Below, one piece after another: positions 11,253-12,302 of a DNA stretch of 32,000 nucleotides. This stretch comes from Kiritimatiella glycovorans (GTDB taxonomy: Bacteria > Verrucomicrobiota > Kiritimatiellia > Kiritimatiellales > Kiritimatiellaceae). Each line of letters opens with the position of its first letter. Position 1 is the stretch's first letter. The notes below the pieces were generated by a model that made no database searches, was not told where the DNA came from, and was given only the letters and a program-made list of their open reading frames with translations. The position numbers were made by a program, and so were the translations under genes. Where the stretch lies: NCBI RefSeq assembly GCF_001017655.1, contig NZ_CP010904.1, positions 660,001-692,000 of the forward strand, in the 5' to 3' direction.

Positions 11253-11274
11253 TGGTAGCGGGGCTGGGATTTGA
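11253..11274 (-). repeat. 22-nt exact duplicate of the tRNA-Met 3' end (att-like direct repeat)
   Basis: TGGTAGCGGGGCTGGGATTTGA is identical to 12226-12247. Identity breaks inside the T loop and no 5' T-stem half is present, so this is not a tRNA gene. Confidence 0.85.
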
Positions 11275-12225
11275 GAGAAGCGGGGTCTGACCCCCCGTAA
11301 GCGGTTCAAAGAGAAAGAGTAAGCGTGTGTTAAAATCGCTTGTTTTGTCTTAGGGGGTCAGTTATGGCCCCAAAAATGGAGTTTTAAGCGCGAATTTCTG
11401 TTTTGTTTCGCGAGAGACCGACGGAGGTACGGTCGAGGAATGTGCGACGCTTCCTGAGGCGCGAGGAGCTTACAGCATCTTTTCCGGCTATAAAATTGAG
11501 GCCCTAAGCGCAGGAAACCGATTGCTGTGGGATGTAAGTCCTTCACAATGAAGAGTTAGAAAGGGTCAGACCCCCAGACCTGAATTTCCTTGCCAACAAA
11601 CGCGCCTCCGGCCGATCTCGAGGCGCTGGGCGAAGCCTGATCGCCAAACCAGAATCATAATTTATCACTTCGCCCGCGCCCGGCCGTGCGCCTGGATATC
11701 TTCCTTCCAGCCATCAGCCCCCCCCCTGTGGAGAGCGAATGATATGCGATCTCTCTGTTCGTCTCCATTATGGAGTTTGATCAGATCAGCCTTTTGTGCA
11801 GAAAAGCGCGTCCGGACCCGCTCTTCAAATACGCCTCGAATGCCATGGCTTTCCGCTCGTCCGGAAACGTGCAGTGCCAGGCCAGATCCCAGGGCCGATG
11901 GCGAGCGGTCGCCGGTGTCGAGCCGGCATTGTGGCGCTCAAGGCGTGTGGGCAGATCGACTGAGGAGAAACCGATGTAGATTCGGTTGGGGTGCGGAATG
12001 CTGCGGATGATATAAACATGGAACATGCAGACGGAAGTGCGGATGAAACTGTCCCGCTTCGCCTGACACGGGCGTGCCAGCCGAAGCTGAAACATCAACC
12101 GGCTTTTCCGGGAAAGTTATCTCCGGTGTCATAAGCCCGCCGTCGCTCGCCGCTTCGCTCTGAGCTATGGCGGGCAGCCTTCGCAGAACATCAACCGGAA
12201 AAGCCGGTTGATGTTCTGCGAAGGC
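11275..12225. mobile_element. Putative ~0.97-kb insertion (or island remnant) bounded by the duplicated tRNA 3' end
   Basis: It is bounded by the 22-nt direct repeats and is visibly lower in GC than the flanks. It contains only a GIY-YIG ORF, a 24-bp hairpin and GGGTCWGACCC palindromes (11282-11294, 11563-11573). No integrase is present. Confidence 0.45.
11781..12026 (-). CDS. Stand-alone GIY-YIG nuclease-family protein (~81 aa)
   Basis: MFHVYIIRS...RIYIGFSSVDLPTRLERHNAG...PWDLAWHCTFPDERKAMAFEAYLKSGSGRAFLHKRL carries the GIY/YIG strands, the conserved Arg and the NAG motif of the small UPF0213-like subfamily. The start is set at the internal ATG 12026; the tracked ORF extends to 12098. Confidence 0.75.
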   Translation of the reverse strand: MFHVYIIRSIPHPNRIYIGFSSVDLPTRLERHNAGSTPATARHRPWDLAWHCTFPDERKAMAFEAYLKSGSGRAFLHKRLI

Positions 12226-12227
12226 TG
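12175..12227. repeat. Perfect 24-bp-stem hairpin abutting the tRNA CCA end
   Basis: CAGCCTTCGCAGAACATCAACCGG (12175-12198), loop AAAAG, CCGGTTGATGTTCTGCGAAGGCTG (12204-12227). A 21-nt partial inverted copy (AACATCAACCGGCTTTTCCGG) lies at about 12090-12110. Confidence 0.85.
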
Positions 12228-12302
12228 GTAGCGGGGCTGGGATTTGAACCCAGGACCTTCAGGTTATGAGCCTGACGAGCTACCAGACTGCTCCACCCCG
12301 CA
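12226..12302 (-). tRNA. tRNA-Met (CAT), initiator-like
   Basis: 77-nt cloverleaf read by hand: TGCGGGG-TG-GAGC-AGTCTGGTA-GCTC-G-TCAGG-CTCATAA-CCTGA-AGGTC-CTGGG-TTCAAAT-CCCAG-CCCCGCT-A-CCA. It closely resembles E. coli tRNA-fMet and has A11:U24 and a 1:72 mismatch. CCA is encoded. Confidence 0.9.

Follow-up and report, generated by a model that had tools for sequence, protein, structure and literature searches.

In phages T4 and T6, segB, which encodes a GIY-YIG nuclease, lies among the phage transfer RNA (tRNA) genes and, through double-strand breaks mended by recombination, favours the inheritance of itself and its neighbours. The SegB protein is a member of the I-TevI clade with a DNA-binding region at its C terminus; its gene is carried by phages, and no conserved leader joins it to a tRNA end. 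Small genes named 'GIY-YIG nuclease family protein' are annotated by the thousands without an assigned role. A 2006 survey of GIY-YIG proteins mentions tRNA in only one respect, namely prokaryotic Slx1-like domains fused or adjacent to tRNA methyltransferases (PMC1564403). Here we describe such a small gene in a 32-kb stretch of the Kiritimatiella glycovorans chromosome (the window), where it lies between two copies of a tRNA-Met 3' end. We are confident that it belongs to a widespread module made up of a tRNA or transfer-messenger RNA (tmRNA) 3' end, a structured leader and a mini GIY-YIG gene. This module is undescribed in the sources searched: in the literature we found neither an account of small GIY-YIG genes placed behind bacterial tRNA genes nor one of an RNA motif that goes with them. 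An earlier note on this DNA was not aware of any description of such a gene spreading into tRNA genes in a homing-like way. Judging from its sequence context, we lean towards regarding the module as a selfish element of tRNA and tmRNA 3' ends that moves, or moved until recently, without an integrase. Related loci were obtained from a one-genome-per-species scan of 185,579 species genomes, which gave at least 584 hits; 80 loci from many phyla were kept, and loci and related contigs are labelled L001 onward.

ARAGORN and Rfam agree on one tRNA gene in the window, a tRNA-Met with anticodon CAT and an encoded CCA at 12226-12302 on the minus strand (RF00005, 65 bits). It is initiator-like: it appears to resemble E. 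coli tRNA-fMet closely and has a 1:72 mismatch, so that the label 'initiator-type' looks right. Its last 22 nt (12226-12247, minus strand; TGGTAGCGGGGCTGGGATTTGA) recur exactly at 11253-11274 on the same strand, from T-loop to CCA, and 951 bp separate the two copies. The insert is thus flanked by an exact direct repeat of the tRNA 3' end, as in tRNA and tmRNA islands. At the distal copy, ARAGORN calls no second tRNA. Six nt past this copy begins a hairpin of 12 pairs with a loop of 5 (11246-11218, minus strand), followed by the T-run TTTTTCTT; this intrinsic-terminator-like feature (11209-11246, minus strand), seen both in a terminator scan and as an inverted repeat, is probably the original tRNA terminator.

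The earlier note had read the repeat, the inability of the distal copy to be a tRNA and the terminator in the same way, and had proposed an insertion that regenerates the tRNA 3' end while displacing the old end with its terminator; the architecture of the window fits this proposal. Its remark on low GC between the copies holds for the insert itself, but the same low GC (0.48-0.60) spans the whole non-coding region of ~10100-12500, beyond both copies. It had also named the possibility that the 22-mer is a generic dispersed repeat. Such a repeat, a chance match or an assembly artefact is extremely improbable: nothing beyond general possibility speaks for it, and the window holds exactly two copies, still two when up to three mismatches are allowed, where shuffles expect 0. 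Moreover, the repeat stops exactly at the CCA end of the tRNA with the terminator next to it, and the same architecture is found in independent assemblies (L004, L044 and L028), of which L004 is laid out like the window, with a 12-nt copy of the tRNA-Met end followed by a canonical terminator.

Between the repeat copies, the one ORF with a domain match, rightly picked out before as the only convincing one, encodes an intact stand-alone GIY-YIG nuclease of 81 aa (11781-12026, minus strand). It matches PF01541 with E=2.6e-14 and 53.7 bits (cut-off 22.6), which places it in the GIY-YIG superfamily; the remaining small ORFs have no Pfam match. A longer version starting at TTG 12098 was discarded because every homologue begins at the ATG-equivalent position. 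Among 36 sequences, residues Y17, G19, R28, H32 and E64 never vary and Y5 hardly does; the window protein has all six, and its C-terminal YLKSGSGRAF block is invariant in the family alignment. Compared with three relatives, the ORF has a dN/dS of 0.09-0.18, and the protein is therefore maintained by purifying selection.

The AlphaFold (AF2) model of the protein has a pLDDT of 96.7. Profile comparison with the PDB gave the UPF0213 structure 1zg2 at 1.7e-8 and Slx1 at 8e-8, with I-TevI only at E=0.65, and Foldseek gave Slx1 with a TM score of 0.68-0.76 and UvrC at E>3. By both profile and fold, the nearest solved structures are the Slx1 nuclease domain, At-HIGLE and bacterial UPF0213 proteins, with I-TevI and UvrC not close, which assigns the protein to the Slx1/UPF0213 clade rather than to the I-TevI, UvrC or restriction-enzyme clades. 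It differs from the Slx1-Slx4 enzyme in being a single domain with no RING or zinc finger and no conserved adjacent partner gene, and from classical homing endonucleases (I-TevI/Seg) in having no linked DNA-binding domain. The nuclease for which homing-like spread was proposed earlier is of Slx1/UPF0213 type and not a classical homing endonuclease. Since its nearest relatives are these and not I-TevI or UvrC, the protein is predicted, from sequence and model, to be a lone nuclease domain of the structure-selective type that lacks a DNA-binding module. It fits no NCBIfam model (the one for group I intron endonucleases gives 11.7 bits, below its cut-off of 56), and it matches 0 families among the PADLOC anti-phage defence models. 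The exact sequence of the window protein was not found on record, but homologues are numerous: 410 close ones, essentially all stand-alone and of ~80 aa, come from Lentisphaerae, Verrucomicrobiota, Kiritimatiellia, Alphaproteobacteria and other groups, and a profile search returned 3867 cluster-50 representatives at E<=1e-10, of which the 150 best listed are 78-166 aa long with a single matched stretch each.

From the first base after the CCA to the ORF, the window carries a conserved structured leader of 199 nt (12027-12225, minus strand). Across the family, the spacer opens with the P1 sequence GCCTTCGC or a covarying variant right after the CCA in ~44 of 49 tRNA loci (by eye), and the leader consensus reads ACCA followed directly by GCCTTCGC-...-GCTTCGGCTGGCAnGCCAG-...-GCGAAGGC-TGYCCGCC-GAAGC-(hairpin)-GCGAAGGNGGRC, with the ATG 10-30 nt further on. 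We tested the structure on an alignment of 27 spacers, with 500 shuffles and slid alignments as controls. In the five-helix structure 93% of cells are paired, and compensatory changes occur at 9 pairs, for example GCCTTCGC/GCGAAGGC, ACCTACGC/GCGTAGGT and GCTTTCGC/GCGAAAGC; none of the 500 shuffles reached any of the observed measures, and the slid controls were 27-45% paired. The covariation extends across phyla. By our own reading, one hairpin loop is TTCG or TACG, i.e., a UNCG-type tetraloop, and the helices contain 33 G-U pairs against 13 A-C mismatches; a sense-strand RNA (or a single strand) is therefore favoured.

A covariance model built from the 27-spacer alignment (R1) locates the leader directly upstream of the ORF in ~78 of the 80 loci, every tmRNA locus included. 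In the window it matches 12093-12229 (minus strand) with 45 bits and E ~1e-18 to 1e-21. Compared with the canonical leader of ~100-120 nt, the window version is permuted, as in L030 and L075: P1 is closed on itself, followed by P3 and then the UNCG/GGC block. All on the minus strand, these elements are the P1 hairpin GCCTTCGCA...TGCGAAGGC (12177-12225), which lies inside a perfect 24-bp hairpin (12175-12227), the P3 helix (12135-12175), a partial duplicate of the hairpin arm (12091-12111) and the UNCG/GGC hairpin block AGCTTCGGCTGGCACGCC (12071-12088; R1, 15 bits). The 24-bp hairpin had been noticed before; it is real, and rather than a mere curiosity it is part of the conserved, covarying leader that defines the module. 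No family in Rfam 15 matches the leader, either at the gathering threshold or at E<=10: the only hits at threshold were tRNA, tmRNA and one unrelated group II intron, and the sub-threshold hits were spurious miRNA models.

A guide segment inside the leader was considered and discarded. The longest complementary match between leader and cognate tRNA averages 6.7 nt, as opposed to 6.5 nt for non-cognate tRNAs, with no excess of complementarity or identity, and no guide segment of the kind seen in OMEGA systems was detected in the leader. A search of the window for other leader copies turned up only two isolated hairpins resembling P3, at 20840-20871 (plus strand) and 29838-29868 (minus strand), each scoring 17 bits with R1 and with arms ..TGCCGAAGCC...GGCGCAGGCAGG and TGTCCGCCGAAGGC...GCCGAAGGCGGAG; these may be relatives of REP-like elements or chance matches.

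The link between small GIY-YIG genes and tRNA genes to which the earlier note pointed is borne out by the family, and is very strong. A complete tRNA gene lies directly upstream on the same strand in 49 of the 80 loci, covering 26 anticodons and 14 identities including selenocysteine (SeC), and a tmRNA gene does so in 14 more, giving 63 of 80; tmRNA genes had been missed as targets. Most of the other 17 are cut by a contig end or have a tRNA or tmRNA 3' fragment or NCCA at the junction. By our own estimate from typical tRNA density, the chance that a random gene has a same-strand tRNA within 700 bp is well under 1%. The order tRNA-fMet, leader, GIY-YIG recurs across the Kiritimatiellia/Lentisphaerae clade (L001, L002, L004 and L094).

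Two kinds of junction depart from this pattern. At L007:5869-5880 and L010:5850-5860, in a Verrucomicrobiae clade, the leader variant TTCGCTTCGCC follows directly upon the discriminator base of tRNA-Gly with no encoded CCA, and CCA is therefore not strictly required at the junction. Additionally, in one multi-copy metagenome-assembled genome (MAG) and in Melioribacter roseus, the place of the tRNA in front of the leader is taken by a conserved stretch of ~27 nt, ...CCTAAACATATCAACTAAGTAACGCCA, which likewise ends in GCCA and has no Rfam match (L047:5836-5865, L047:8508-8537, L062:657-686, L062:5830-5859 and L038:1870-1900).

We next turn to the signs that the module moves. Exact copies of the tRNA suffix lie downstream of the ORF in L004 (12 nt), L021, L030 and L044 (17 nt each) and L028 (20 nt), with <=8 nt in three same-locus controls; the association of GIY-YIG homologues with duplicated tRNA 3' ends, which the earlier note had proposed to look for elsewhere, is found at these five loci. 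Repeat-bounded units can be minimal: the insert of L044 is 369 bp, beginning with the leader's first base and ending one base after the stop codon, that of L004 is 540 bp, and both consist of leader and ORF only. Repeat lengths vary (4-22 nt, and ~88 nt in L028), and the base following the CCA is the fixed left end. In three of the four pairs whose DNA was aligned over the whole unit, similarity does not go beyond tRNA, leader and ORF; the ORF stop codon marks the end of the conserved unit.

Similar proteins are found behind different tRNA or tmRNA genes (87% identity between Ile-GAT and Ala-CGC, 81% between Ala-CGC and Arg-CCT, 77% between tmRNA and Val-CAC). One MAG has at least four dispersed copies that are 87-99% identical, and the similarity of its tRNA-Glu copy to the others starts exactly at ...GCCA. 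Tandem units occur in L034, L073, L010, L077 and L094, truncated units are also common, and multiples, tandems, truncations and leader-only arrays are seen in L079, L077 and L074. Beyond the unit, the DNA is variable: a 2.3-kb indel lies behind the module between two Luteolibacter genomes, identical P0018 proteins have differing downstream genes, and the genes beside modules include DUF433/DUF5615 pairs, AbiE-type and helicase-type genes. These copy, repeat and neighbour traits are those of selfish DNA rather than of a housekeeping gene.

Several individual arrangements deserve mention in their own right. Behind a tRNA-Ala(GGC), L079:2303-2968 (minus strand) carries three tandem leaders with no GIY-YIG ORF, possibly non-autonomous or decayed units, and in L077 a unit made of the leader and the first 18 nt of the ORF occurs four times in tandem. 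In L094:3305-3526 (also in L095-L097), a second, different GIY-YIG gene of 73 aa, with no YLKSGSGRAF block, lies directly downstream of the module, and ~700 bp beyond it L094 holds a fragment of a third copy. Toxin-antitoxin-type genes, namely AbiEii-like nucleotidyltransferases, an AbiEi/AbiEii pair and DUF433/DUF5615 PIN-like pairs, adjoin the module repeatedly (L081:979-1425, L038:471-1785, L021:6384-7524 and window 11583-11637).

Could the gene nevertheless be a resident of its host? It would then be linked to, and co-transcribed with, a tRNA or tmRNA gene and have a cellular role, e.g., in RNA or tRNA metabolism or in recombination at tRNA loci, and the 22-nt repeat would be an unrelated scar of the recombination common at tRNA genes. 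The purifying selection on the ORF agrees with such a role, as does the excess of G-U pairs over A-C mismatches (33 vs 13), which favours a sense-strand RNA, and the Slx1-like domains fused or adjacent to tRNA methyltransferases hint at RNA metabolism (PMC1564403). However, the family is apparently present in only a small minority of the species genomes scanned (at least 584 hits), and a resident gene accords poorly with the leader-only arrays, tandems and truncations, with the near-identical dispersed copies in one genome, with close homologues behind different tRNAs, with the repeat-bounded minimal units and with the toxin-antitoxin- or defence-type variable DNA that recurs beside the unit. 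We regard a resident gene as rather unlikely.

A number of observations weigh against a mobile element, and some of them are equally points for a resident gene. Copies are stable and syntenic across relatives (L012/L018 and 10 Phenylobacterium contigs); the tRNA-fMet association, which would suit a resident gene as well, is kept across the Kiritimatiellia/Lentisphaerae clade with proteins 56-91% identical; and no member of the family occurs on 72,556 plasmids, while only one viral contig carries it. About 90% of loci have no 3'-end repeat, and a 21-nt duplicate accompanies one of eight unrelated control tRNAs from these loci, namely in L073. With only eight control tRNAs and one of them positive, no enrichment of repeats can be claimed; the repeats therefore agree with the model without proving it specifically. 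How a nuclease domain of 80 aa on its own would find a target is, in addition, not obvious, and in the clade of the window (L081, L001, L002 and L004) a terminator-like hairpin nested in the leader would limit read-through from the tRNA promoter.

To these points is added the empty site, which the earlier note had wanted to see in a relative and which we did not find in L082 or in two metagenome scans. L082 is the only close relative of the window's flank, with 92% DNA identity over apbE/nqrF (the window's ApbE is ~47% identical to that of Pontiella). Synteny with L082 is lost in the last apbE codons (window 12475-12524 vs L082:1494-1865), beyond which there is no tRNA and instead a pseudopilin-like gene with no homologue in the window; a rearrangement breakpoint therefore coincides with the tRNA-Met locus. 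Metagenomes were scanned for the reconstructed tRNA/terminator junction and, with gaps allowed, for an empty Phenylobacterium tRNA-Met site, with 0 hits in either case.

We then considered what else the insert contains, along with its closest relative. The closest module, L081, has a protein 91% identical to that of the window and an ORF with 92.6% nucleotide identity. A blastn alignment of window 11780-12392 to L081 (82% identity) covers the tRNA promoter, tRNA-fMet, leader and ORF, with homology stopping at 12392; the upstream promoter or leader region of the tRNA accordingly occupies 12303-12392 (minus strand), the promoter itself being read by eye only. Converging on the ORF, L081 has an intact AbiEii-like gene (Pfam AbiEii), and at the same relative place the window retains a frameshifted, 3'-terminal remnant of an AbiEii-like nucleotidyltransferase gene, ~18 codons long (11583-11637, plus strand) and convergent with the GIY-YIG ORF. 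The remnant was recognised by tblastn with the L081 protein, which matches NFLANKRASGRSR and ADLEALGE, and by blastn of 11584-11651 against L081. The insert is thus not, as the earlier note had it, one carrying only a GIY-YIG gene, and because it also holds this decayed fragment, the two alternatives offered there, a decayed island and a minimal element, are each partly true. Since what remains is the 3' end of an AbiEii-like gene, the insert would have carried donor flank ending arbitrarily inside a gene. Such an arbitrary end would be expected from the copying of an occupied locus into a broken tRNA gene, whereas a site-specific recombinase would leave a defined element end.

The rest of the insert is mainly a stretch of ~290 bp of lower GC (0.48-0.50; 11282-11574, unstranded), whose ORFs have no Pfam match and which may be a small secondary insertion. 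It lies between two reverse-complementary palindromes, GGGGTCTGACCC (11282-11293) and GGGTCAGACCCC (11563-11574), which are the two GGGTCWGACCC palindromes previously reported. Their pattern, GGGGTCWGACCCC, is perfect only at these two sites in the window; a third site, at 28134-28144, has one mismatch.

A tRNA 3'-end repeat with a displaced terminator is the classical signature of an island, and the decayed cargo just described (the AbiEii-like remnant and the ~290-bp stretch) suits one as well. In this alternative, a tyrosine-integrase island entered the T-loop region of tRNA-Met, duplicated 22 nt and lost its integrase and nearly all of its cargo; the GIY-YIG gene would be cargo, or an imprecise excision from an earlier host would have picked it up together with the tRNA end. 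Integrases do use the same tRNAs: at L001:612-2440 a Phage_integrase gene (539 aa) abuts a 48-nt tRNA-Met 3' fragment, followed by a leader with ~60-nt tandem repeats and the ORF. Small remnants between tRNA and leader in L071 and L010, and the 21-nt duplicate of the non-GIY tRNA in L073, point the same way. Judging from its gene order, though, L001 is a tyrosine-integrase island inserted upstream of a resident module, a layout the reverse of the window's that illustrates an integrase event at a locus of this kind, and in L001, L071 and L010 the leader and GIY-YIG gene stand outside the insertion, beside the displaced fragment. The window leader, on the other hand, abuts the intact tRNA, as in ~60 other loci with no island, and the minimal inserts of L044 and L004 hold no integrase remnant. 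Nor does the window's insert contain an integrase or a remnant of one, as an island of this kind would: in line with the earlier note, no integrase or transposase was found in the insert (Pfam on ORFs) or in the 12 kb beyond it (window 1-12000). A decayed island is unlikely in our view.

Around the insert, we note the following. The 12 kb beyond it encode ArsR, an ArsP permease, a low-molecular-weight phosphatase, a GH5 cellulase, NrpR, glutamate dehydrogenase, a P-type ATPase and an AraC regulator. The first three form a cluster (arsR, ArsP-type permease and ArsC-like low-molecular-weight phosphatase) at 8057-10275 on the tRNA strand, past a non-coding stretch. This stretch, ~900 bp from arsR to the terminator (10300-11210), has no Pfam or Rfam match and holds two module copies of ~90 nt containing CGAGTACGAGTGCGATATTCC..GGGTGTCCC (10480-10570 and 10955-11032), an inverted repeat with 25-nt arms (10687-10782) and three GTCACCTT repeats (11088-11126).

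Returning to the mobile, integrase-free element that we favour, its life cycle might be as follows. The element has no recognisable promoter and would probably be transcribed from that of the tRNA, with presumed processing at CCA|G, and the folded leader would probably have the task of recruiting the nuclease or of separating or stabilising the mRNA. Having no DNA-binding domain, the nuclease would probably read structure (an acceptor/T-arm-like fold or the leader) rather than sequence, and would break the tRNA gene near its 3' end. Repair from an occupied locus would then copy the tRNA end, the leader, the ORF and a variable length of donor flank, regenerating the tRNA and shifting the old 3' end and terminator downstream. 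In the window, the co-copied flank would have taken in part of an AbiEii-like gene, since decayed. That the module's own nuclease drives insertion by such break-and-copy is a tentative proposal, possible rather than probable on the present sequence evidence. Quite speculatively, and with little confidence, we also consider that leader and mini-nuclease act as one particle, in which a transcript of the tRNA 3' part and leader (or a single-stranded DNA fold) places the Slx1-like domain on tRNA and tmRNA genes.

Whatever its mode of life, this subfamily is characterised by the base after the tRNA or tmRNA CCA as its fixed address, by a covarying leader absent from Rfam as its obligate partner, and by selfish-DNA behaviour. 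If the module is mobile, it represents an integrase-free occupation of classic island-integration sites, which would explain part of the variability behind tRNA genes, and a very small structure-dependent nuclease with a defined nucleic-acid partner. If leader and nuclease do form a particle, this would be RNA- or structure-guided, integrase-free targeting of tRNA ends, a GIY-YIG counterpart of OMEGA modules with the smallest such nuclease known, which could carry toxin-antitoxin or defence cargo as mini-islands. Even as part of a resident gene, the leader would be a widespread new RNA motif that spans phyla and is joined to tRNA 3' ends, raising the question of how such tRNAs mature.

Taken together, these results allow the module to be set beside the systems that it most resembles. 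It shares with SegB a GIY-YIG nuclease gene beside tRNA genes and the lack of an integrase, but its protein is a bare 80-aa domain of Slx1/UPF0213 type and is chromosomal. Like tyrosine-integrase islands, it targets the 3' halves of tRNA and tmRNA genes, regenerates the gene end and leaves a displaced 3' fragment as a direct repeat; unlike them, it has no integrase, comes in units down to 369 bp and combines variable repeats with a left end fixed after the CCA. The GIY-YIG endonucleases of group I introns in bacterial tRNA genes likewise bring together a GIY-YIG gene, a tRNA gene and a structured RNA, but those introns are ribozymes in the anticodon loop, whereas the module lies 3' of the CCA, leaves the tRNA uninterrupted and matches no intron family. 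With OMEGA and IS200-IS605 systems (IscB with HEARO/omega RNA, TnpB with reRNA), the module has in common a compact nuclease ORF preceded by a structured non-coding element at the boundary and a logic of selfish retention or homing. This is resemblance only and not membership: the nuclease fold is another one, no guide was detected in the leader and the module has no transposase partner. Finally, Slx1, At-HIGLE and UPF0213 proteins (BH0048, YhbQ-type) are the best matches in sequence and fold, with the catalytic Tyr, Arg and Glu kept. The module protein differs from these in having no RING or zinc finger and no Slx4 partner, in its own YLKSGSGRAF helix, and in a context fixed behind tRNA and tmRNA genes together with a structured leader.

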